From sequence record NC_100129.1: a stretch of DNA of 50,984 nucleotides; one strand, written 5' to 3'. The notes under the pieces are model-generated. The model had not been told where the DNA came from, searched no databases, and saw nothing but the letters and a program-made list of their open reading frames with translations. The position numbers and the translations under genes were made by a program. This stretch comes from a phage. Positions 3,224 through 25,843 of this stretch are shown here, piece by piece. Position 1 is the first letter of the stretch, and the number at the start of each line of letters is the position of its first letter.

Positions 3224-3928
3224 ATGTATAAAGGTTTAATATTCTCCCTATTTGATGGGTCTGGTAAAGCCGTTAAAGATTGGGCTGATAATGGCTATAA
3301 GTGCATTTGCTTTAATGCTGACGGTGGCGATCACGGTGATTACCAGTCAGTGCGCATAAAGCATGAGAATATCGAATACGTTAACGTCTGGATTGACGAT
3401 GCTTTTTATGTTAAGGCAATAAATAATGAGTGGGGCAATCCTGATTTTATTATGGCCTTCCCACCATGCACTGACCTTGCAAATAGCGGATCTCGCCATT
3501 GGGCTAAAAAACGCCTTGAGAATCCATCGTTCCAGGATGAGGCCGCCGACACTTGCAGAATCGCGGCTGATATAGCTGATTATTTCGGTGTTCCTTACAT
3601 GATCGAAAATCCGGTTGGCAAGTTGTCAACGTTATGGCGTAAGCCTGATTATACGTTCCATCCGTGCGATTACGCTGGCTATCTGCCGGAAGATGATAAA
3701 CATCCCGACTTCCCTGATATTATTCCGGCGCGTGATTGCTACTTTAAGAAAACATGCCTTTGGACTGGAAACGGCTTTATCGTTCCACAGAGAAAACTGG
3801 TATTGCCAACCGAGAAGGATAACCCAGGCTGGGCTAAAACTGGTGGCAAATCATCCAGAACAAAGATGATACGCTCCCTCACTCCGCGAGGATTTGCTCG
3901 CGCCGTATTTGAGGCAAACTCAAAATAG
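3224..3928 (+). CDS. compact C5-cytosine DNA methyltransferase-like protein (234 aa)
   Basis: Motifs in canonical order: FSLFDGSG (motif I), AFPPCTDLANSG (PC motif IV), MIENPVG (ENV motif VI); no room for a normal target-recognition domain; stop TAG is part of dyad motif. Confidence 0.55.
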   Translation: MYKGLIFSLFDGSGKAVKDWADNGYKCICFNADGGDHGDYQSVRIKHENIEYVNVWIDDAFYVKAINNEWGNPDFIMAFPPCTDLANSGSRHWAKKRLENPSFQDEAADTCRIAADIADYFGVPYMIENPVGKLSTLWRKPDYTFHPCDYAGYLPEDDKHPDFPDIIPARDCYFKKTCLWTGNGFIVPQRKLVLPTEKDNPGWAKTGGKSSRTKMIRSLTPRGFARAVFEANSK

Positions 3929-3944
3929 CACTTTTTGTTAAAAC
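3925..3944 (+). promoter_or_regulatory. dyad motif copy
   Basis: Overlaps stop TAG of methyltransferase-like gene; followed by hairpin GCCCGAC..GTCGGGC and CATAAT. Confidence 0.6.
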
Positions 3945-4000
3945 GCCCGACCTTGAGTCGGGCATAATGCGTTTCAACGAAAACAACTGGAGAAAATCAA

Positions 4001-4387
4001 ATGAAAGTTATCCGCAATTCCGACAACAAATTGATGAACGGTCGCTATAAAACTGTTTACACAAAAGTAGCTGGCAGCGACGACGTGATCGAGGTGGAGG
4101 AATTTCAGGTTAAGGCGCTGGCTAAGGGCGCGAAGTGGGAATCAGCCAACCAGGACGAATACCGCACTATCAAGGCAAAGACGATTCTATGTACGTTTGT
4201 TGATCACCGGATGGCAACCAAAAAAAGTTTTAAAGCTGGAAAGCGTTACCAGGTCGAACAGGGTCGCGTTCTTGGATCAGTTGCTGGTTACGTCTTCGAT
4301 GAGGACGGCGACCGATGGACGCTCTACCGCGAGGAGGTCGGATTCTCTGCTGGTTACTCTTATCTTTTTGAGGCCAAATATTCATGA
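4001..4387 (+). CDS. hypothetical protein (128 aa)
   Basis: ORF with GGAG RBS after motif 3925-3944. Confidence 0.5.
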   Translation: MKVIRNSDNKLMNGRYKTVYTKVAGSDDVIEVEEFQVKALAKGAKWESANQDEYRTIKAKTILCTFVDHRMATKKSFKAGKRYQVEQGRVLGSVAGYVFDEDGDRWTLYREEVGFSAGYSYLFEAKYS

Positions 4388-14210: not shown

Positions 14211-14267
14211 AATTAATTGCCTGGCGTGGTTTATCATTGCCAGGCTTTTTCTTGTATGAGGTTTACA

Positions 14268-15179
14268 ATGCACTACGACAAAGACGAAGTTTTACCGCGT
14301 ATGCTGGGAATGTGGCAAACTGCATTAATGAAACTATGCAATGCGCCTCAATCTTTCTTTAATGGCAAGCATCAACCGTGCCTGTATTGTGGTGGCAAAG
14401 ACCGCGCTCGTTGGACTAACCAACTCGCAAAGAAAGGTGATGGCGGCAATATCTGCAACGTATGCGGTAACGATAGCGGGATCGGGTTGTTTATGCGATT
14501 GCGCGGGGAAAGCTATAGCGAAGCAATTAACACGCTGGGCGACTGGCTCAATCTCGTTCCGGTCGAAGTGGTGGCAAAGGCTAACAAGATAGCGTCGCGC
14601 TCGTCCGGCTACAATTTCGGGAAGCAGGCCAGCCATGAATGCTGTGAAAGAGTAATGGCAAAGACGCTTAAATTTGATCGCACTCCTTTAAGCGTATTTG
14701 AAGGAATCTACCCGCCTGATGATGGTCATTACGATTGCGGAGTTAAGGATGGGCGATACATTCACGCGCTTCCGTGCCGACTTGTTCACGAAGACGGCGT
14801 GGATGATGAGATGTGCAATATTCTCTTTATCACAGAGGAAGGCGATAAATCATTTCTGGCAAAGGATTACACGCGCGGATCGGTTGTTGTAACTGGTAGC
14901 ACAGATAAGACGATCTATTTGTGCACTGACTGGGTAAATGCTCAGCATGTGCACATTGCGACGGGGCAAGAAGTATGGACGTGCTACAATAACTACAATC
15001 TTGAGATGGTTGCCCACAGATACAAAGGAAATCGAAAGATGCGCGTCGTATGCCATAAAGATGATCGGGATGTAATAATCGCCGCCGATGAAAGAAACCT
15101 TGATGTTATGCTGCCGATTGGTGGAAACTTCAAAAATGGCATTGAGAAAAAACTTTACAAGCCTGAATCGCTTTTATAA
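14268..15179 (+). CDS. DNA primase with zinc-ribbon (P4-alpha-like Zn-binding domain)
   Basis: CLYCGGKDRARW...CNVCGNDSGIGLFM matches primase zinc-ribbon motif; GAGG RBS at start; terminator downstream. Confidence 0.65.
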   Translation: MHYDKDEVLPRMLGMWQTALMKLCNAPQSFFNGKHQPCLYCGGKDRARWTNQLAKKGDGGNICNVCGNDSGIGLFMRLRGESYSEAINTLGDWLNLVPVEVVAKANKIASRSSGYNFGKQASHECCERVMAKTLKFDRTPLSVFEGIYPPDDGHYDCGVKDGRYIHALPCRLVHEDGVDDEMCNILFITEEGDKSFLAKDYTRGSVVVTGSTDKTIYLCTDWVNAQHVHIATGQEVWTCYNNYNLEMVAHRYKGNRKMRVVCHKDDRDVIIAADERNLDVMLPIGGNFKNGIEKKLYKPESLL

Positions 15180-15219
15180 GATTAGCGAGAATCCATCGTT
15201 ATCACTTCCTTTATGCTTA

Positions 15220-15243
15220 CCCCGCTACGCGGGGTTTTTTTTT
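15220..15243 (+). terminator. rho-independent terminator after primase gene
   Basis: CCCCGCTACGCGGGG followed by TTTTTTTTT. Confidence 0.8.
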
Positions 15244-15274: not shown

Positions 15275-15291
15275 TTAGCAAAAAGTGCTAT
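15275..15291 (-). promoter_or_regulatory. dyad motif copy, variant (TTAGCAAAAAGTGCTAT)
   Basis: About 12 nt upstream of RBS of tail fibre gene, after primase terminator. Confidence 0.5.
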
Positions 15292-15308: not shown

Positions 15309-17264
15309 ATGGCAATTTATCGCAAAGGTCAAGCGTCAATGGACGCTCAAGGCTATATAACTGGCTACGGGACGAACTGGCGTGAGCAGTTAACGCTGAT
15401 CCGTTCCGGCGCAACCATTATTTTTCTGACTCAGCCGCTACAGGCCGCAGTTATCACCGAAGTGGTCAACGATACTAGCATTCGAGCAATCACCACTGGT
15501 GGTGCTGTTGTTCCCCGTTCAGACTACATAATCTTGCTTCATGACTCGTTAACTGTTGATGGCCTGGCGCAAGACGTAGCGGAAACATTGCGCTACTACA
15601 TGGGGAAAGAGTCGGAGCTTGCTGGATTTATTGAGATCATCAAGGATTTTGATTGGGATAAGCTACAGAAGATCCAAGAAGACGTAAAGACAAATGCTGA
15701 CGCAGCAGCAGCAAGCCAGCAGGCAGCTAAAACCAGCGAGAATAACGCGAAGACAAGCGCAACAAATGCAGCGAATAGCAAGAAAGGCGCTGATACTGCA
15801 AAGGCTGCCGCTGAATCCGCGCGCGACGCTGCAAACACTGCAAAGACTGGCGCTGAAGCAGCAAAGTCTGGCGCTGAATCCGCGCGTGACGCTGCGAACA
15901 CCGCAAAGGCAGGCGCTGAAAGTGCGCGAGATAAAGCGGAGGAATACGCAAAGCAGGCCGCAGAACCTTACAAAGACTTATTGCAACCGTTGCCGGACGT
16001 GTGGATACCGTTTAATGATTCGCTTGATATGATTACGGGATTCTCGCCGTCATACAAAAAGATTGTCATAGGTGATGATGAGATCACAATGCCAGGCGAC
16101 AAGATTGTTAAATTTAAACGAGCATCAACCGCCACTTACATTAATAAGTCTGGCGTGCTTACTAATGCTGCTATTGATGAACCTAGATTTGAAAAGGATG
16201 GTCTTCTCATCGAGGGGCAAAGAACAAACCTTCTTATAAATAGCACCAATCCTTCAAAATGGAACAAGTCATCAAACATGGTATTAAACCAATCAGGAGT
16301 TGATGATTTCGGTTTTTCATTTGGCAAGTTTACATTGAAGCCAGAAATGGTAGGGCAAACATCGGCTATTAACATAGTTACAGTATCTGGTAATAAGGGT
16401 TTTGATGTTACTGGTGAAGAAAAAAGAGTAACAATCTCATGCAGAGTAAAGGGAGGTAAAGGAAACATAAGGTGCAGGCTTAGATTTGAAAATTATAATG
16501 ATAGTGGATATACCTTTTTGGGTGATGCTTATCTCGGACTTGAGGACTTGTCAATAGAAAAAACAGGCAGTGCTGCAAACAGGATAACAGCAAGAGCAGT
16601 AAGAGATGAATCAAGCAAATGGATATTTTTTGAGGCCACGATCACAGCATTAGAACAGGAAGGCATGATTGGTGCAATGGTGCAATATGCACCTGAAAAG
16701 GGGGCTGCAACCACTGCCGACGATTACATTTATATTGCAACTCCACAAGTTGAGGGAGGATCTTGTGCCTCTTCTTTCATAATTACAGAAGGAGATCCAG
16801 TAACACGGGCAAGCGATATGGTAAACATACAATCAATTAACAACCTTTCCATTAGACCTTTTACCGTATTATGTGAAGTTGGCATAAACTGGACTACTCC
16901 GCCAAATATTGCTCCTAGAATATTTGATGTTGGAGGCCATAAAAGTGATGAGAATTATTTGTCTTTAGGTTTTGTTTCAACTGGTAAATTGTCTGCAAAC
17001 GTTGGCATGACTCAGCCTCAAATTGCTGTGAGTGGCAATAAATTCATTGCAGGATTGAGAGCAAAATCAGATCTGTCTGTAAATGCTTTCTTTAATGGAA
17101 ACTATACAACCAATCCTAACGGTAAGGTTTTTGGTGTAACTGCAACATCTTTAAGATTTGGTGGACAAACAACTTCTGGATCAAGGCACTTGTTTGGTCA
17201 TGTAAGGAATTTCAGGATGTGGCATAAGGAGCTAACAGATCACCAAATGGGGGAAATTGTATAA
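15309..17264 (+). CDS. tail fibre protein with Ala-rich repeat shaft
   Basis: Long Ala/Ser/Lys-rich quasi-repeats typical of fibre shafts, contains a 63-bp tandem DNA repeat; AGGAG RBS. Confidence 0.7.
   Translation: MAIYRKGQASMDAQGYITGYGTNWREQLTLIRSGATIIFLTQPLQAAVITEVVNDTSIRAITTGGAVVPRSDYIILLHDSLTVDGLAQDVAETLRYYMGKESELAGFIEIIKDFDWDKLQKIQEDVKTNADAAAASQQAAKTSENNAKTSATNAANSKKGADTAKAAAESARDAANTAKTGAEAAKSGAESARDAANTAKAGAESARDKAEEYAKQAAEPYKDLLQPLPDVWIPFNDSLDMITGFSPSYKKIVIGDDEITMPGDKIVKFKRASTATYINKSGVLTNAAIDEPRFEKDGLLIEGQRTNLLINSTNPSKWNKSSNMVLNQSGVDDFGFSFGKFTLKPEMVGQTSAINIVTVSGNKGFDVTGEEKRVTISCRVKGGKGNIRCRLRFENYNDSGYTFLGDAYLGLEDLSIEKTGSAANRITARAVRDESSKWIFFEATITALEQEGMIGAMVQYAPEKGAATTADDYIYIATPQVEGGSCASSFIITEGDPVTRASDMVNIQSINNLSIRPFTVLCEVGINWTTPPNIAPRIFDVGGHKSDENYLSLGFVSTGKLSANVGMTQPQIAVSGNKFIAGLRAKSDLSVNAFFNGNYTTNPNGKVFGVTATSLRFGGQTTSGSRHLFGHVRNFRMWHKELTDHQMGEIV
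15810..15935 (+). repeat. tandem in-frame 63-bp repeat (2 copies) inside tail fibre gene
   Basis: GCTGAATCCGCGCG(C/T)GACGCTGC(A/G)AACAC.GCAAAG... at 15810 and again at 15873; encodes AESARDAANTAK.GAE twice. Confidence 0.8.
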
Positions 17265-17542
17265 TGCGCGATTTAACACTGAAATTTGTAGACAAGGCGG
17301 AGTTTTCCGCCTTTCTGGAAAGAATAGAATGGAACGAAAACGAAAACATTCAGGATGCAATCCTGCTCGATGTAATCGGCAATACTTACACAGTAATTGC
17401 ACGATCTGACGATGGCGAGGAGATTGCGCGAAAGAACGACGGCTATTTCGTCAATGTGCGAATCATTGATGATAAGTTTGATGCCGTAATTTTTAACGAC
17501 TACGTGGTTGAGTTAGATCAGCCGATTAGAGAATGGGCTTAA
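17264..17542 (+). CDS. hypothetical protein (92 aa), possible fibre-associated
   Basis: ORF translationally coupled (TAATG) to tail fibre gene. Confidence 0.45.
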   Translation: MRDLTLKFVDKAEFSAFLERIEWNENENIQDAILLDVIGNTYTVIARSDDGEEIARKNDGYFVNVRIIDDKFDAVIFNDYVVELDQPIREWA

Positions 17543-17554
17543 GGAGTTAGGAAA

Positions 17555-18250
17555 ATGGCTACAGTAACTGTTATACCTACTGATATAACGAAGCTGAAAA
17601 ATGATGTTTCTACGATAAAACAGGATGTTTCGACACTAAAGCAGGATGTCGCCGGAAAAGCATCAACTACTGATGTTGACAATAAGTTGAAACCGTATCT
17701 AAAACAAACTGATCTATCATCCGAGTTGAGTAGCGGAAGGTATAGTGGGAGTTTTTACCCCCTAACTGGTAACGATGCATTTTATTTATTTAATATTAAC
17801 ACAACCGCTCAATCAGCAAACTTATGGCTTGATCCAAATGCTGGAGTGTCGCAAGTTTTACGCTCCACTTCCTCTTCTCGTTATAAGAGCAGCGTAGAAT
17901 CGGTTATTGATGAATATGCGGATCTGATGCTTGAAATGCGTCCTGTGTTGTATCGGTCAACTTGTGAAAGCGACCGTAAAGATTGGGGATGGTACGGACT
18001 GATTGCAGAGGAAGTTGGAGAGGTTGCGCCGGAGTACGTTCACTGGCGACCGCTGCAAGAAGGAGAAGATCCTGCCATTGCTTCAAGTAATGGCATGGTG
18101 GCGGAAGGCGTTATGTATGACCGCCTCACTGTTCCACTGATTCACCACGTCAAGAATCTGAAAGCGGAAAATGAGGAGATGAGAAAAGAAATTGACGAGC
18201 TAAAAGCGGTTGTAGCGGCACTGGTAAACAAACAAACCACGTTAGACTAA
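17555..18250 (+). CDS. short fibre-like protein with C-terminal intramolecular chaperone (peptidase S74-like) domain
   Basis: N-terminal heptad-like repeats; C-terminal SSRYK...GLIAEEVGEVAPEYV...YDRLTVPLIHHVKNL matches the auto-cleaving chaperone domain of tail fibres and endosialidases. Confidence 0.65.
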   Translation: MATVTVIPTDITKLKNDVSTIKQDVSTLKQDVAGKASTTDVDNKLKPYLKQTDLSSELSSGRYSGSFYPLTGNDAFYLFNINTTAQSANLWLDPNAGVSQVLRSTSSSRYKSSVESVIDEYADLMLEMRPVLYRSTCESDRKDWGWYGLIAEEVGEVAPEYVHWRPLQEGEDPAIASSNGMVAEGVMYDRLTVPLIHHVKNLKAENEEMRKEIDELKAVVAALVNKQTTLD

Positions 18251-18280
18251 AAAAATGCCCCGCATATGCGGGGCTTTTGT
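18250..18280. terminator. bidirectional terminator between fibre genes and ssb
   Basis: GCCCCGCATATGCGGGGC flanked by A-run and T-run. Confidence 0.75.
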
Positions 18281-21073: not shown

Positions 21074-21343
21074 ATGAAAAAATTAATCGCAGTTATCGCC
21101 ACCGTAGCCGCTCTGACCGGATGCGCAGCGTCGCCTACTGGCAGCTTCAAAAAGATCGATTGCACGGCAAAATTTAACGTTAAAACATTCCCTGTTAACG
21201 GATTCCATGAAGTCAAAATTAATGCAGTACGCGAAAACAGATTCAGCCAAAAGCAATACAGGTTGAGCGTTGACAATAAAGAAGTTAAATTTATCAACCG
21301 CTGGCAAAATGAAAGTAAATTTATTGATTTGAGGTGTAATTAA
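21074..21343 (+). CDS. small outer-membrane lipoprotein, candidate Cor-like superinfection-exclusion protein
   Basis: Signal peptide plus lipobox LTGC; 89 aa; own upstream dyad motif; position next to J-like gene. Confidence 0.5.
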   Translation: MKKLIAVIATVAALTGCAASPTGSFKKIDCTAKFNVKTFPVNGFHEVKINAVRENRFSQKQYRLSVDNKEVKFINRWQNESKFIDLRCN

Positions 21344-21621
21344 TGGCGCAATATGGTTATGCAATATATGACGATCGAGGAAGGGAAGTTACAGGACTTT
21401 TAACGCCTGTTTTCTTTCTTGATAAATTCACTCAGCCATCAGGTAGCAAGACTTACCAAAACAGGCCGCCAGGTAAATCATTGAAAGCAATATATGTTGG
21501 CATGAATTCCTGGCGTGGTGGCGACCCTGGCGCACCAAACTTATCGGTAAGTGGCGACACCGTTACATGGAGTGGGCTTTCTGGATCTGATTCAAGATAT
21601 ATATATACTTTTTGGGGGTGA
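21343..21621 (+). CDS. hypothetical protein (92 aa), paralog-motif family
   Basis: Shares N-terminal motif YG-x-x-I-x-x-x-x-G with the next ORF; translationally coupled. Confidence 0.45.
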   Translation: MAQYGYAIYDDRGREVTGLLTPVFFLDKFTQPSGSKTYQNRPPGKSLKAIYVGMNSWRGGDPGAPNLSVSGDTVTWSGLSGSDSRYIYTFWG

Positions 21622-22238
21622 TGATGTACGGGATGAGCATAAAAAAATCAGACGGATCATTATGGTTAAGCCCAGATTTCACTCCGGTTAATCTAATTGA
21701 TCGGGCAGTTATATCTGCTAATACCGGAACAGTTTTTACTTCGTCAATTCCTATTGATAGGGTGTGTTTTTTCTTTGTTAGATTGACTGCTAAATCATAC
21801 ATATCATTTACGCAATTTAACAATGGAGGAAGACACGCAATAAGACTTGATAGATCTGATAATCAGGGGGATGTTATTGTTTATGCTTTTAGCAACATGG
21901 TTACGCCTCCTGGTAGTCACGGGATAGCATTTTATAATGCTAGTGGTGAAATGGTTTATCATGGAAAAATGAGGCCTTTGGATGCAAAACTTGTATCTGT
22001 AAGCGGGATCGCGTTTGATGTTAATTTGGGATACCCTTGCGCCATAATGCCATCACTGACAGCGTTAAACTCTGTTCCTAATCCGGCTTTAGGTGGATTC
22101 ATGATATTTGAATCTCAGGCTGCTGCGTATGGCAACGGTGTATATTCTTTCTCTAGGCAAGTTGCACAAACTCCTGGCCCAGTTGGTATTTACACCGCTT
22201 CATCTGTTTTGGTTATAAATACATCACACTATGATTAA
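21612..22238 (+). CDS. hypothetical protein (~205 aa), paralog-motif family
   Basis: Contains motif twice (YGMSIKKSDGS, HGIAFYNASGEMV); followed by bidirectional terminator. Confidence 0.5.
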   Translation: MGVMMYGMSIKKSDGSLWLSPDFTPVNLIDRAVISANTGTVFTSSIPIDRVCFFFVRLTAKSYISFTQFNNGGRHAIRLDRSDNQGDVIVYAFSNMVTPPGSHGIAFYNASGEMVYHGKMRPLDAKLVSVSGIAFDVNLGYPCAIMPSLTALNSVPNPALGGFMIFESQAAAYGNGVYSFSRQVAQTPGPVGIYTASSVLVINTSHYD

Positions 22239-22242
22239 AATT

Positions 22243-22266
22243 AAAGGGGGCTATGCCCCCTTTTTT
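22243..22266. terminator. bidirectional terminator between plus-strand cassette and J-like gene
   Basis: GGGGGCTATGCCCCC then TTTTTT; A-rich upstream. Confidence 0.8.
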
Positions 22267-25200
22267 ACCAGCTTCCGGTAATCCTTCCGACTTCAACCCT
22301 CAATACTCCGTTTGCATCTTTTACCTTCAATCCCTCATTGGTGAATTTAGTAGCTCCTTCTCCTGGCGTTGATCCGTAATTCTCAAAGATTCCGTTTTTA
22401 TCAAGCCTCCATCCTTGCTGGTTTTGAACAAAGTTGTTTGACTGAATAACATTACCAATCATCGCATTAGTGATTGATCCGTTCTTCACCAAAAGACTAT
22501 TAATGAAAACCTGATTATTCTCAACCACGAAAGGCAAAGTGAAAGTCCCTCCAGTAGAGCTAGTCATAATGGCGAACCTGTTAGCATCAAACAAAATTTG
22601 CGAGATAAGGCCGGATGAACCCTGCGAAAGCTGCATCACCATTCCTGCGCTGTACTTCTGCCCATTGTAAGTAAGACCCAATTTCATAGCGTACTTAGCG
22701 CCAACTGAATCAACGCTCGCCCAAGAATCCAACTTTTCAACCAATGCAGATTCAACGTCTCCAAATCGTGCTGTTAATGCCTGATCAGCTTGTACTCGTG
22801 CTTCCTCCTCGTTGGCGATAGCTTGTCTCACTTCGGAAATGCTGGCCTCAACGTCAACCTTGATTGCATCATTGAGATCATTAATCTCTTTGGTGAATTT
22901 TGCATCAAGCTGTTGTACCGCTTGCGCTCGCGCTTCTGACTCGTTAGTGATTGTCTGCCTTACATCGCTAATGCTTGCAGAAGTATCCTTGCGCACGCCG
23001 TCGATTTCTTTCGTGAATTTAGAATCAAGCTGCTGAATTTGAGTTGCTCGTGTCTCTGATTCAGTGGCGATTGCCTCCTGAACTGTCTTGATGCTTGATG
23101 TTATCTCGCCATCAATTGAAGCCCTCAATTCTTCGATTTGAGTTACTCGCGCCTCAGTCTCATTTGCGATCAACTGAACAGCATGACCATATTCAGCCTT
23201 TCGCTTTCCGTTCTGTACTCGCGTCCATTTCAAGTTAGCGTCAATCGCCAAAGCGTTCTGGATTATTGCCTGCGCCTGGTCTTTGATCTTGTTCGCGCTT
23301 TCGATGGCGTTCTCCTTGATTTCTTGCCCTGCTTCGCTATCAAAAATCTTATCAAGAATATCTCCTAAAACAGATTCAACATCATCTGATGCCATGCCAC
23401 GAACAAAATCAGTCCAGCTAGAAACGTTGCCGATTCTGTCAACGCTGCGGATTCTATACCAGACAACCTGACCCGCTGGTAGTGTACTGTGCCAGTATTC
23501 ATATTGCGGGTATGGGATCAGCGTTAACAGGCTTGAGTTTTCAACCGTTCCGTCTGGCGACTGGTGAAGCTCAATGTAGGCCGTGTCTCCGCTTCCTTCT
23601 GGCATGCCCCATTTAATACGAATGCCGAAAACTTCATTATCTGATGCGGTTAAGTTAACTGGCGCGCCTGGCTCGCCAACTTTACCAGTCAGGGAAGCTG
23701 TTGCAATCTTCGACCATGCTGATGTACTGCCGGAAGCTGAAACAGATCTGACCCTTACTTGATAGTTCCCTGAATAAATTCCTTCTACTTCCGTCTCTTT
23801 GTTCGCTGTGCGCGGCGTATTTAGCCAGTTGCCATCACCTTTTCGCCATTGCATTTCATACAGTGACGCATAAGGCACTTTATCCCACGACACAACCATC
23901 GTCTCAACGCTAACACCCTGGACAACACGGGAGTATGATGACACCTGAACATTTTCCGGTGCTTGCATGATGTCCGGCTGCACGATTGAGATCGGACGAT
24001 CATCAATGTTTACGCCATAATCAATTTCGTCGTATTTGTTAGGATCGTATTCAACCGCCGTAATCGAGTAGGTAAATTCTTCCTCAGTGTCACCCTTGCT
24101 GATTCCTGTTACAACGTACTGTTGCAACGCAAGGTCTGTTCGGTCGATTGCAAATACGGTGTCCGGTTTTACGTCGAATCCGAACCCTACGTTTAACTCA
24201 ATGGTTTTTCCGTCCGCGCTGACTTTTGAGATTGTGCGCTTAACTGGTTTTCCGTCCGGTCTGTTGATGATAATGAAATCACCTGGTCTAGCGTCAATCT
24301 TAAACGGAACGAATACCTGCAAGCCGGAAACTTCCATTACGCGCCCTGATAGGTTGAGCGTTAAGTTGCTGCTCAGGAAGTTATCAGAAATCGCGATAAC
24401 GTCACCGATAGATGGGATCATCCCTTCCAGCCCGGTGGCAAAGTTTACCGTTTGGCTGCGCAGGTTGGTTTTCAGTATCCAGCGTCCGCGTCGATTCGCT
24501 TCGCTTCGACGGGTACAACCAATCGCCGTGATACTTGTTGGATTGTAGCCAAAACGTAACGCCGCCTCAGTGTCAAATACGCCCTCAACGTCCTGTTGAT
24601 ACATGTTTTGCTCATCGTCAAACGTAACGTTGCATTGAGTGTACATGCTCTTTTCGCTGGCGCTCGTGTACTGAAAATCTCCATTAATTACGTTGTCGTT
24701 TGTAAAGATGTATGATGGCTCGCGCGGTTTATCCACCACTACAGACAAGCTCTCGCCATTCCAAAAAGTCATTCCTCGGAAGATTGAGCAAATGTCACGA
24801 ATAAGCTGATAAGCCTCAATCTGGCTTTGAATCACCATATCGCATAGGTAGCGCGGCTCTGTTCCTCCCTTGCCATCTGGAACCATCTGATCACAATACA
24901 CCCCAGCCTCGTATAGACTCCACTTGTCGATCTGTATTCCCAATTCTCGTTGATCAAGTCCATAACGCTGATTAGTAACCAAATCGTAAAGAACCCATGC
25001 CGGATTATTTGACCACGCTTTTTTAAATGTTCCGTCCCATGTTCCAGAATACCGACGAGATACAGGATCGTAATTGCTGGGAACCTGAATCAACTTCCAT
25101 TTCTTTTTAATTGAAATGTTAGGGATCTGGTTAGGGAACAGTTCACTGTCAAACTCGACGTAAACAAGCCCAGTCAGAGGGTAACGGAATTTTGCATCAA

Positions 25201-25843
25201 TTACCTCGGCGTAACTCTGTATGCGGATCAGGTCTGTAACCTTCGACGTTGTGCTGTCAGGCGTAACGCGGCGAACGCGAAGCAAAACACGCTCATTGAA
25301 TTTCGGCAAGTCAATGCGTCGGCTACGGTCGTATCCGGTGCGCGTCTTGCCGTTAATGGTGTCGATCATTACTTCTTTGTATGAATCACCATCAACCGCC
25401 ATATCAACTGCATATGTAACGGTAACGCCCACCAAGTCGCCGTTATCCTCCTGCTTAATACCCACTGGCATTAGCATTTTGATGCGTATTGCGGAAAGCG
25501 TCTTATTCGTTACCGACAAAACATATGGCGTATTTGTAGTCAAATCTCGATTGATGATCACCTCGTTTGACGTGTCAGTAAAACCCTGAATGTATTCCTG
25601 ATCCTGCGTTCCTGGCCTAAACTCTGCTTTAACGCCTGGGTAGTTTACAGTTCCGTCGTCAGCGATAACCGGAACATCATCAAGATACAGATCACGTAAT
25701 GAGAAATCCGCGTCACACTCACCATCGGATACGGCAAGCAGGATTTTAATTTTGTTTATTGAAATCAGGTTATCTTCAAGCTCTTTAGGCACGTAAGGTT
25801 TTTTCGACCCACCCTTACTGCCAGTTATAATATTTTTAGCCAT
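22265..25843 (-). CDS. central tail fibre / host specificity protein (lambda gpJ-like)
   Basis: 1192 aa; blocks recalled from lambda J (LQVPSNYNP..YSG.WDGTFK, CDQ.VPDG.GGTEPR); last gene of tail module. Confidence 0.9.
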   Translation of the reverse strand: MAKNIITGSKGGSKKPYVPKELEDNLISINKIKILLAVSDGECDADFSLRDLYLDDVPVIADDGTVNYPGVKAEFRPGTQDQEYIQGFTDTSNEVIINRDLTTNTPYVLSVTNKTLSAIRIKMLMPVGIKQEDNGDLVGVTVTYAVDMAVDGDSYKEVMIDTINGKTRTGYDRSRRIDLPKFNERVLLRVRRVTPDSTTSKVTDLIRIQSYAEVIDAKFRYPLTGLVYVEFDSELFPNQIPNISIKKKWKLIQVPSNYDPVSRRYSGTWDGTFKKAWSNNPAWVLYDLVTNQRYGLDQRELGIQIDKWSLYEAGVYCDQMVPDGKGGTEPRYLCDMVIQSQIEAYQLIRDICSIFRGMTFWNGESLSVVVDKPREPSYIFTNDNVINGDFQYTSASEKSMYTQCNVTFDDEQNMYQQDVEGVFDTEAALRFGYNPTSITAIGCTRRSEANRRGRWILKTNLRSQTVNFATGLEGMIPSIGDVIAISDNFLSSNLTLNLSGRVMEVSGLQVFVPFKIDARPGDFIIINRPDGKPVKRTISKVSADGKTIELNVGFGFDVKPDTVFAIDRTDLALQQYVVTGISKGDTEEEFTYSITAVEYDPNKYDEIDYGVNIDDRPISIVQPDIMQAPENVQVSSYSRVVQGVSVETMVVSWDKVPYASLYEMQWRKGDGNWLNTPRTANKETEVEGIYSGNYQVRVRSVSASGSTSAWSKIATASLTGKVGEPGAPVNLTASDNEVFGIRIKWGMPEGSGDTAYIELHQSPDGTVENSSLLTLIPYPQYEYWHSTLPAGQVVWYRIRSVDRIGNVSSWTDFVRGMASDDVESVLGDILDKIFDSEAGQEIKENAIESANKIKDQAQAIIQNALAIDANLKWTRVQNGKRKAEYGHAVQLIANETEARVTQIEELRASIDGEITSSIKTVQEAIATESETRATQIQQLDSKFTKEIDGVRKDTSASISDVRQTITNESEARAQAVQQLDAKFTKEINDLNDAIKVDVEASISEVRQAIANEEEARVQADQALTARFGDVESALVEKLDSWASVDSVGAKYAMKLGLTYNGQKYSAGMVMQLSQGSSGLISQILFDANRFAIMTSSTGGTFTLPFVVENNQVFINSLLVKNGSITNAMIGNVIQSNNFVQNQQGWRLDKNGIFENYGSTPGEGATKFTNEGLKVKDANGVLRVEVGRITGSW

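Follow-up and report, generated by a model that had tools for sequence, protein, structure and literature searches.

A three-gene lateral tail-fibre operon of a Warwickvirus, with a short third protein that carries an S74 intramolecular chaperone domain

S74-type fibre chaperones are already known, as is the position of the fibre locus in T1-like phages. The T5 fibre protein pb1 is cleaved between Thr1263 and Ser1264, and its dyad is formed by Ser1264 and Lys1269 (PMC4690869). In the T5-like phage IrisVonRoten (Bas32), the fibre protein Gp22 has a galectin-like domain, and an AlphaFold-Multimer prediction attaches Gp24 to this proximal fibre (Humolli et al. 2025, PMC11990801). DT57C and DT571/2 have a branched lateral fibre with two protein components, LtfA and LtfB (PMC4728585, PMC10713586). 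Throughout the Drexlerviridae, the lateral fibre locus sits between primase/helicase and recombination genes, and the large fibre gene has a conserved 5′ end (PMC8594841, S1C Fig). What is new here is the definition of a cassette with three parts: a proximal fibre whose C-terminal domains are lectin-like, a partner of 92 aa, and a distal protein that is exchangeable and marked by a 15-residue N-terminal motif.

A lateral tail-fibre operon in Jahat_MG145

The window, that is, the whole stretch of 50,984 nucleotides analysed here (NC_100129.1), comes from Escherichia phage Jahat_MG145, a Warwickvirus of the Drexlerviridae. Positions 15309-18250 on the plus strand are a single three-gene operon for the lateral tail fibre of this T1-like coliphage (Table 1). 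The operon is flanked by the primase on one side and by recombination genes on the other, and it ends 4,015 bp from the J-like gene. The initial annotation had recognised tail fibre genes about 4 kb from the J-like gene, on the opposite strand and downstream of the primase; all of this is present, and the genes are those of a lateral tail fibre. The locus had also been called detached from the tail module, which is true as a position but is no anomaly. The window agrees with the Drexlerviridae pattern both in location and in the conservation of the large fibre gene's 5′ end, and the primase-fibre-recombination layout is shared with at least 47 records. The odd-looking placement is the known norm of the family. 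A sigma-70 promoter scan of the operon region gave nothing above chance.

Table 1. Coordinates of the features of the fibre operon and its surroundings
Feature	Position	Strand	Details
Primase	14217-15179		directly 5′ of the fibre operon; Zn_Ribbon_Prim match
Terminator-like hairpin and T-run, upstream operon boundary	15219..15235	+	primase/fibre operon gap; 7-bp stem, 6 GC pairs, T8 tail
Gene 1, proximal lateral tail fibre protein, 651 aa	15309..17264	+	phrog_1419 tail protein, 3e-219; PeterMerian 'lateral tail fiber protein'; ribosome-binding site
N-terminal virion-anchor domain, aa 1-120	15309..15668	+	conserved across Drexlerviridae
Ala-rich alpha-helical coiled-coil shaft, aa 121-225	15669..15983	+	
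Imperfect in-frame 63-bp (21-aa) tandem repeat	15780..15921	+	TRF: 2.3 copies, 83% matches
Junction block PLPDVWIPFNDSL...GLLIEGQRTN, aa 227-306	15987..16226	+	mean top-residue frequency 0.77-0.90
GTA head-spike-fibre-like domain, aa 300-501	16206..16811	+	NF048003, 65.8 bits, cut-off 36
LamG/ConA-like lectin domain, aa 511-646	16839..17246	+	Laminin_G_3, 17.5 bits, below cut-off
Gene 2, 92-aa conserved companion protein	17264..17542	+	phrog_1361
Gene 3, 231-aa minimal distal fibre subunit with C-terminal S74 intramolecular chaperone	17555..18250	+	AAGGAG 8 nt upstream of ATG
N-terminal motif MATVTVIPTDIT, proposed docking peptide	17555..17590	+	M-x-T-x-T-x-IP-x-DIT-x-LK with next residues
Heptad coiled coil, aa 11-58	17585..17728	+	hydrophobic residues 11, 14, 18, 21, 25, 28, 32
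21-bp (one heptad) tandem repeat	17603..17649	+	2.2 copies
Short beta-rich tip, aa 59-105	17729..17869	+	
C5 run	17758..17762	+	C6 (frameshifted) in orkinos, JLBYU19, AV105
S74 intramolecular chaperone domain, aa 106-231	17870..18247	+	14.3 kDa; long terminal helix
Predicted catalytic dyad, Ser106 (17870-17872) and Lys111 (17885-17887)	17870..17887	+	homologue alignment, T5 pb1
Bidirectional terminator hairpin, downstream operon boundary	18257..18274	.	common to the convergent SSB gene
J-like gene	22265-25843	-	Phage_Tail_Tip, FNIII-A_GpJ, Phage-tail_3 matches

Gene 1 starts with the ATG at 15309, which has an AGGAG 10 nt upstream; an alternative GTG start at 15285 has no ribosome-binding site. 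Its anchor domain was matched in 896 phage records, every one under tail-fibre genes, and is 82-100% identical to that of relatives, in agreement with the conservation reported for the Drexlerviridae (PMC8594841). Among the phage lineages compared, the best-conserved part of gene 1 is the junction block. The GTA head-spike-fibre-like domain is mosaic and variable between relatives, and residues ~550-640 have just 15-24% identity to nine relatives. The weak Laminin_G_3 match recurs in the T5-like homologues of gene 1. Gene 1 encodes the proximal fibre, with the Drexlerviridae-wide anchor, an Ala-rich, presumably trimeric coiled coil, and two variable domains of glycan-binding type (GTA-spike-fibre-like and LamG-like), which most likely carry host specificity.

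The shaft had been reported to contain a 63-bp perfect-frame tandem duplication at 15810-15935, a possible site of length variation. The repeat is real and in frame, consisting of 21-aa units of three heptads. However, it is imperfect: 46 of 63 positions are identical at 15810-15935, and 54 of 63 in the best register (start 15796), with units 83-86% identical. Length variation at this site is ruled out, as the number of units is equal in 10/10 relatives.

The start codon of gene 2 overlaps the stop codon of gene 1 (TAATG). The 92-aa protein, which has a small alpha/beta fold, was found in 173 phage records, each time directly 3′ of a fibre gene. It may be a small conserved partner of the fibre, either an adaptor or an assembly factor. 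Neither the 92-aa nor the 231-aa protein has sequence or fold similarity to the known Tfa, gp38 or Mu U families.

The S74 domain and the short N-terminal part of the third protein

The initial annotation described the 231-aa protein as mostly a chaperone domain of the peptidase S74 type. This domain is genuine. The motifs SSSRYK and GLIAEEVGEVAPEYV are present. In an HMM search against Pfam PF13884, the protein scored 21.7 bits (E 2.5e-4), 0.3 bits short of the cut-off of 22. Its orthologues in KarlJaspers (22.4 bits) and PhiR55_1 (26.8 bits) are both above the cut-off, and homologues from the cassettes described below score 47-59 bits. A PDB search with the single sequence gave coiled-coil noise only, and a family profile was needed. 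The profile matched DT57C LtfA (8hqz_d, 6e-7), the MyRF ICA domain (7dc3, 7e-7), and S16 gp37 (6f45, 4.5e-5), and in all three alignments STSSxRYK lies over the catalytic motif; T5 pb1 was absent among the PDB matches of this search. In the AF2 monomer model, residues 106-228 have a pLDDT of 64-93, with a helix at 192-224, while residues 44-105 are below 50 and uninformative. The best Foldseek match to the model is 7dc3 (prob 1.0, TM 0.6 on target); 3gud and 3gw6 are weak, non-significant matches (E 0.3-0.9). The S74 assignment holds: the near-cut-off Pfam score is backed by the profile search, the fold search, and the orthologues over the cut-off.

A mixed alpha/beta body followed by a long helix lies at the extreme C-terminus of the protein, as in the S74 fold. 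In the matches of the representative search that reach the query end, a median of 4 residues of the matched protein remain C-terminal to the aligned part. Ser106 and Lys111 lie five residues apart at the domain start; among 26 homologues, Lys111 is invariant and Ser106 is conserved in at least 90%. Cleavage is predicted between Thr105 and Ser106.

Exactly 105 residues precede Ser106, matching the earlier estimate of about 105, and the suspicion that the mature product would be unusually short for a fibre was borne out. Of the 150 best-matching representatives of 50%-identity clusters, 145 span the cleavage site and were used to compare lengths. Their predicted mature parts have a median length of 382 aa, and only nine are at most 110 aa long, so that the 105-aa form belongs to the shortest ~6%. 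It leaves hardly any space for a receptor-binding domain. The conserved element that longer fibres have ahead of the chaperone makes up the last ~30 residues of the tip (matches start at query residues 70-82). The copy number of the 21-bp repeat varies between relatives, resulting in proteins of 224, 231, or 245 aa, and insertions or deletions in the coiled coil come in whole heptads. The mature part is conserved rather than variable, with 87-99% identity among relatives, which is unlike a typical receptor-binding tip. The dN/dS values of gene 3 are 0.11-0.41 overall and 0.15-0.38 in the mature part. Gene 3 is a real gene, judging from its own AAGGAG, the terminator-bounded operon, the purifying selection, and the whole-heptad indels.

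The reading frame of gene 3 is intact in the window and in about 40 relatives. It is frameshifted in 6 of 47 related records. At least five independent frameshift alleles exist, and the C6 allele of the C5 run occurs on two different sequence backgrounds. Gene 3 is absent from Jouyvirus cassettes. Since frameshifts and such cassettes exist, gene 3 is dispensable for plaque formation.

A cassette in other phage groups and the role of its third gene

Judging from gene order and homology, the three genes are one conserved mobile cassette present in several unrelated phage groups. It recurs in Hanrivervirus, lambdoid prophages, Nonagvirus, Dhillonvirus, and T5-like phages (IrisVonRoten Gp22-24). 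The order of the fibre gene, the ~90-aa gene, and the dock-bearing gene is kept in the lambdoid PhiR55_1, an E. coli prophage, a 60-kb contig, and T5-like contigs, and also in IrisVonRoten Gp22-24, JenP2, KarlBarth, and L6jm. The window has the proximal fibre, the ~92-aa protein, and the distal protein in this order, each with its own homologue. Identity to IrisVonRoten is 52% for gene 1 and 48% for gene 2; for gene 3, it is 52% over the N-terminal 33 aa and 26% over the chaperone domain.

The N-terminal motif M-x-T-x-T-x-IP-x-DIT-x-LK was found in 94 phage records, and gene-3 proteins from 98 up to 576 aa long retain it. Among the records listed in both the motif search and the search with the 92-aa ORF, the motif gene always starts 10-15 nt after the stop codon of that ORF. 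Gene 3 of the window has the motif and a start within this distance. In proteins of 326, 348, and 574-576 aa in the same position, the motif and the S74 domain are separated by large receptor-binding domains. The KarlBarth protein keeps the motif, while its C-terminus is not S74 (Phage_tail_C_2). Thus, the conserved element is the N-terminus and not the chaperone. Within the cassette, the 231-aa protein represents the third gene in its minimal form.

What does such a short protein do? I favour, with a probability of roughly 0.6, a very short self-cleaving fibre end-piece that is docked by its N-terminus and sheds its chaperone. Gene 3 would then encode the minimal form of the exchangeable distal subunit. 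The S74 domain (aa 106-231) would trimerise and fold the short coiled coil and the tip in cis. Self-cleavage by Ser106 and Lys111, between Thr105 and Ser106, would come next and set the 14.3-kDa chaperone free. The mature piece of 11.3 kDa would stay on the virion, where its conserved N-terminal peptide would bind the gene 1 product at the distal end and/or the gene 2 product. Searching the literature for Warwickvirus virion proteomics or a Drexlerviridae S74 protein, I found nothing on the 231-aa protein; a preprint on contingency loci names Warwickvirus only for its high simple-repeat density and does not mention gene 3.

It is rather unlikely that the protein is instead a trans-acting chaperone or a transient cap for the main fibre, lacking from the finished virion. 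Gene 3 lies downstream of the fibre gene, where tfa sits in lambda, and its small product shows no obvious receptor-binding domain. The orthologues of PeterMerian and KarlJaspers are labelled 'putative lateral tail fiber chaperone' in the BASEL annotation, DT57C LtfA is reportedly unstable without LtfB (PMC4728585), and, according to a passage in PMC11990801, chaperone 'caps' of the fibre tip have been proposed for Alteromonas phages. However, the S74 domains characterised to date act on their own polypeptide (T5 pb1, PMC4690869). A trans-acting role also fits poorly with the same-position proteins that have large receptor-binding domains inserted before S74, with the KarlBarth cassette, with the purifying selection on the N-terminal 105 aa, and with the intact gene 1 of isolates that carry a frameshift in gene 3. 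Labels such as 'chaperone of endosialidase' and 'lateral tail fiber chaperone' probably misname a structural subunit of the distal fibre.

In principle, other tail proteins could serve as attachment sites for trimeric coiled-coil stubs that carry chaperone domains, and the 231-aa protein might be an independent short fibre at a tail site other than the gene-1 fibre or the 92-aa protein. This seems improbable, as phages with differing tail tips (T1-like, lambdoid, T5-like, Nonagvirus, and Dhillonvirus) carry the same motif, and the sole components that they have in common are the C-terminal part of gene 1 and the 92-aa protein. It is similarly doubtful that the minimal distal subunit, rather than binding any receptor, caps the proximal fibre at its end as a piece devoid of a receptor-binding domain, switched on and off through the slippage-prone C5 run and the heptad repeat. 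If this were true, populations would be mixed, with and without the cap, and the lectin domains would be masked or exposed, a bet-hedging in the style of contingency loci.

That gene 3 is a decaying, now functionless C-terminal remnant of an older long fibre, left after cassette exchange, is very improbable. In its favour, the full length of the protein is matched by the final ~220 positions of a fibre family with 1385 positions (phrog_3299, 1e-81), the frameshift alleles are independent, and some cassettes lack the gene. The widely intact frame, the strong ribosome-binding site, the low dN/dS, the abundance of short forms among the prophages of E. coli (two clusters, with 2,928 and 650 sequences as members), and an N-terminus that is a bona fide conserved protein start common to full-size distal fibres all speak against decay.

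The cassette, spanning T1-like, lambdoid, T5-like, Nonagvirus, and Dhillonvirus phages, offers a simple handle for locus annotation and for swaps of distal modules in host range engineering. The 231-aa form is a naturally minimal S74 client and could serve as a convenient model of S74 folding and cutting.

Comparison with known fibre systems

In lambdoid relatives, the cassette occupies the same genomic slot as Stf/Tfa of lambda (J-lom-stf-...). The side tail fibre module of lambda is dispensable, like that of the window. In laboratory lambda (PaPa), the side tail fibre tends to be lost by frameshift, which is a further likeness to the cassette. Unlike lambda, the cassette has no Tfa homologue and has the 92-aa protein and the S74-terminated protein instead.

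The chaperone domain of endosialidase K1F (3GW6) and the MyRF ICA domain (7DC3) belong to the same S74 family (MEROPS/Pfam). These domains fold long triple-beta-helix or tailspike regions, whereas the client in the window is a short coiled coil with a tip of ~47 aa. T5 pb1 (PDB 4UW7/4UW8; PMC4690869) has a C-terminal S74 chaperone with a Ser/Lys dyad five residues apart, as in the window protein, and both chaperones end in a coiled-coil helix. Its cleavage after a Thr has a predicted counterpart at Thr105|Ser106, and the L-shaped fibre of T5, like the fibre of the window, is dispensable on rough laboratory hosts. However, pb1 is a single chain of 1396 aa that includes the anchor, while the anchor in the window is on a separate protein; the receptor-binding tip of pb1 is bullet-shaped and ~290 aa long, as against about 47 aa before the cleavage site here.

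Among PDB sequences, DT57C LtfA (8hqz_d) matches the family of the 231-aa protein best. In DT57C, too, the fibre is made of two proteins, and a short conserved segment at the N-terminus holds the second subunit, which ends in S74. Its docking sequence is different (phiEco32 gp15-like), no 92-aa gene has been described, and both subunits are long and bind O-antigen, while the distal protein of the window is short.

IrisVonRoten Gp22-Gp23-Gp24 resembles the window in gene order and in gene-by-gene homology (PMC11990801). Gp22 has a lectin-like C-terminal part, as does gene 1, with a T5-type N-terminal anchor in place of the T1-type anchor of the window. Gp24 shares the N-terminal motif and the C-terminal S74 domain with the window protein. 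Gp24 is a T-shaped protein of 574 aa with two predicted receptor-binding domains, while the 231-aa protein of the window has essentially none.

Layout of the lateral fibre locus

The region shares 87-97% DNA identity with Warwickvirus phages such as MatMar, tunus, tonn, swan01, and PeterMerian (Drexlerviridae, Tempevirinae). The initial annotation regarded the fibre genes as detached from the tail module. They do lie 4 kb from the J-like gene and on the opposite strand, but this layout is not peculiar; the same arrangement was found in at least 47 phage records, and in Drexlerviridae the lateral tail-fibre locus keeps a conserved, syntenic place between the genes for primase/helicase and those for recombination (Maffei et al., PMC8594841). 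This is the standard lateral-fibre locus of the family.

Features of the lateral fibre locus and its surroundings
Feature	Position	Strand	Remarks
Primase (Zn_Ribbon_Prim)	14217-15179	+	
Terminator-like hairpin	15219-15235	+	between primase and fibre gene
651-aa fibre gene (gene 1)	15309-17264	+	ATG start, AGGAG 10 nt upstream
ORFs over the Ala-rich repeat	15596-16032		other frames or opposite strand; rejected as genes
63-bp repeat (TRF)	15780-15921		2.3 copies
Low-G+C stretch	16001-18000		
Variable C-terminal domains of gene 1	16206-17246		
92-aa gene (gene 2)	17264-17542	+	start overlaps the fibre stop as TAATG
231-aa gene (gene 3)	17555-18250	+	AAGGAG 8 nt upstream
21-bp tandem repeat	17603-17649		in gene 3
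C5 run	17758-17762		in gene 3
Bidirectional terminator	18257-18274		common to the operon and the convergent SSB gene
Three small genes	21074-22238		opposite strand to the J-like gene
J-like gene	22265-25843	-	

Of the three small genes adjoining the J-like gene, one codes for a Cor-like superinfection-exclusion lipoprotein (phrog_1119), one for a 92-aa 'outer membrane protein' (phrog_557), and one for a 208-aa 'membrane associated protein' (phrog_425); together they constitute a receptor-binding/exclusion locus as described for small siphoviruses. Separately, some GenBank entries labelled as Campylobacter, Listeria, or Streptococcus phage closely match T1-/T5-like coliphage sequence (e.g. MG065636, MG065692, OR847733, OR786094) and are probably mislabelled or contaminant assemblies.

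The three-gene cassette and its N-terminal motif

It was found that the order of fibre, ~90-aa gene, and small protein with an S74 self-cleaving chaperone domain recurs in several unrelated contexts: in the lambdoid PhiR55_1, where it follows J-lom, in an E. coli prophage beside DinI and integrase genes, in a 60-kb phage contig, at the ltf position of T5-like contigs (pb9-pb3-pb4-LtfC-...), as Gp22-24 of the T5-like phage IrisVonRoten, and in Nonagvirus JenP2, Dhillonvirus KarlBarth, and the T5-like L6jm. Identities to PhiR55_1 and IrisVonRoten are 42% and 52% for the fibre and 32% and 48% for the 92-aa protein. The 231-aa protein is 56% identical to that of PhiR55_1, and to that of IrisVonRoten 52% over the N-terminal 33 aa and 26% over the chaperone domain. 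The three genes move together as one unit. The 92-aa family extends beyond the cassette (173 records): in Jouyvirus and rV5-like phages it occurs beside fibres that have no gene 3.

Other neighbours were also noted. A ~97-aa hydrophobic protein (at 3792-4085 of the related record L021 and 6688-6981 of L008) comes after the cassette in lambdoid relatives and directly after the 92-aa gene in Jouyvirus, where no S74 gene is present. In ev017 and 2G7a, a sitABCD iron/manganese transporter cargo comes next.

Every gene-3 protein opens with M-x-T-x-T-x-IP-x-DIT-x-LK, whatever comes after, and cassette membership is recognisable by this motif. It is present in 94 phage records, and the motif gene begins 10-15 nt past the stop codon of the 92-aa gene in every record listed in both searches. 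The proteins measure 224-245 aa (Warwickvirus), 227, 268, 326, 348, or 574-576 aa; in KarlBarth, the motif lies on a piece of 98 aa, after which comes a Phage_tail_C_2 protein that has no S74 domain. In the 231-aa protein, the motif is followed by a canonical heptad coiled coil (hydrophobic residues 11, 14, 18, 21, 25, 28, and 32), a ~47-aa tip whose last ~30 residues are a conserved pre-chaperone element, and the chaperone. IrisVonRoten Gp24 is predicted by AlphaFold-Multimer to attach to Gp22, the proximal fibre, which has a galectin-like domain (Humolli et al., PMC11990801). On this evidence, the 231-aa protein is best read as the minimal version of the exchangeable distal subunit of a widely shared fibre cassette, a placement that the present analysis adds.

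The proximal fibre trimer would attach via a T1-type anchor and display lectin-type domains, and the 92-aa protein may be an adaptor or assembly factor. The distal subunit would trimerise on its S74 domain, cut between Thr105 and Ser106, shed the chaperone, and stay docked on the virion by its N-terminal peptide. Of this scheme, the analysis shows the domain identity, the dyad, the homology of the cassettes, the linkage of the motif, and selection; cleavage, trimerisation, docking, and presence in the virion are inferred. The main alternative, a trans-acting chaperone or cap, is less likely, because the N-terminus rather than the S74 domain is the conserved element across cassettes, and because large receptor-binding domains are found in the homologues that occupy this position.

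The S74 domain of the 231-aa protein

The initial annotation proved largely correct in what it observed and partly so in its interpretation. It assigned most of the 231-aa protein to an S74 domain, which GenBank already labels (100% identity to 'chaperone of endosialidase' of Escherichia phage Jahat_MG145). The PF13884 score is 21.7 bits (residues 106-162), 0.3 below the gathering threshold, and four further lines support membership. Bit scores are 22.4 and 26.8 for orthologues and 47-59 for cassette homologues. A profile built from 26 homologues matches DT57C LtfA (8hqz_d, 6e-7), the MyRF ICA domain (7dc3, 7e-7), and S16 gp37 (6f45, 4.5e-5), with alignments that begin at the STSSxRYK motif and run through to the C-terminal helix. 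Over residues 106-228 the AF2 model has reasonable confidence, and Foldseek matches it best to 7dc3 (prob 1.0), followed by weak, non-significant matches to 3gud and 3gw6 (E 0.3-0.9). Lastly, of the Ser-Lys dyad, Lys111 is invariant and Ser106 nearly so among homologues. The Ser-to-Lys spacing and the preceding Thr are the same as in T5 pb1 (Thr1263/Ser1264 and Lys1269; PMC4690869).

The predicted products are 11.3 kDa (aa 2-105) and 14.3 kDa (aa 106-231), and the predicted mature part is unusually short, as had been claimed. When 1.84 billion cluster representatives were searched exhaustively, 3,004 relatives emerged; where a match extends to the query end, the matched protein continues for a median of 4 further residues. 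Of the best 150 relatives, 145 span the cleavage site; among these, the median length of the predicted mature part is 382 aa, and in only 9 is it at or below 110 aa. Short S74 forms are plentiful in E. coli prophages (two clusters, with 2,928 and 650 members).

Variation and selection

The N-terminal 120 aa of the fibre were found in 896 phage records, every time under tail-fibre genes. The 63-bp duplication proposed earlier as perfect exists in imperfect form (83% matches by TRF); the units as first delimited agree at 46 of 63 bases, and at 54 of 63 in the best register. It codes for 21-aa units, or three heptads of Ala-rich coiled coil. Its suggested role in length variation did not hold, as the unit number is identical in 10 of 10 relatives, whose fibre length differences fall in the C-terminal domains. 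The additional ORFs over this repeat (101, 112, and 74 aa) are by-products of GC-rich repetitive codons.

After the anchor and coiled coil, a block (aa 227-306) is kept across all lineages compared, followed by a GTA head-spike-fibre-like domain (NCBIfam NF048003, 65.8 bits, aa 300-501) and a weak LamG/ConA-like match (aa 511-646). The C-terminal domains are a recombination mosaic, 91-97% identical to tonn over part and 30-42% to PeterMerian there, and residues ~550-640 share only 15-24% identity with all nine relatives. In contrast, the 92-aa and 231-aa proteins remain 88-96% identical. Thus, it is gene 1 and not the S74 protein that carries the host-specific variation. The G+C content of the low-G+C stretch is 0.39-0.41, versus ~0.46-0.48 in the flanks; the drop falls on the variable fibre domains, the 92-aa gene, and the beginning of the small gene, which fits an imported cassette and suggests horizontal import.

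All three genes have dN/dS values of 0.11-0.41, and the mature 105 residues of the 231-aa protein give 0.15-0.38. Copy number varies not in the 63-bp repeat of the fibre but in the 21-bp repeat (one heptad) inside the small protein's coiled coil, so that the protein measures 224, 231, or 245 aa among relatives, in whole-heptad steps. According to a 2025 preprint, Warwickvirus has the highest simple-repeat density among the BASEL genera. Four independent events have frameshifted the gene-3 orthologues of 6 among 47 related records: +C in the C5 run (orkinos, JLBYU19, AV105), +CC (JLBYU10), and a -1 shift each in ityhuna and brachmannus. The C6 allele sits on two different sequence backgrounds, and public assemblies contain truncated products from one or more additional events. 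The phages with a frameshifted gene 3 have an intact gene 1. The low dN/dS, the whole-heptad variants, and the frameshifts together indicate that gene 3 is selected in nature yet dispensable for plaque formation. The side fibre gene stf of lambda behaves in the same way. So does the lateral fibre gene ltf of T5 (PMC4690869, PMC4728585).
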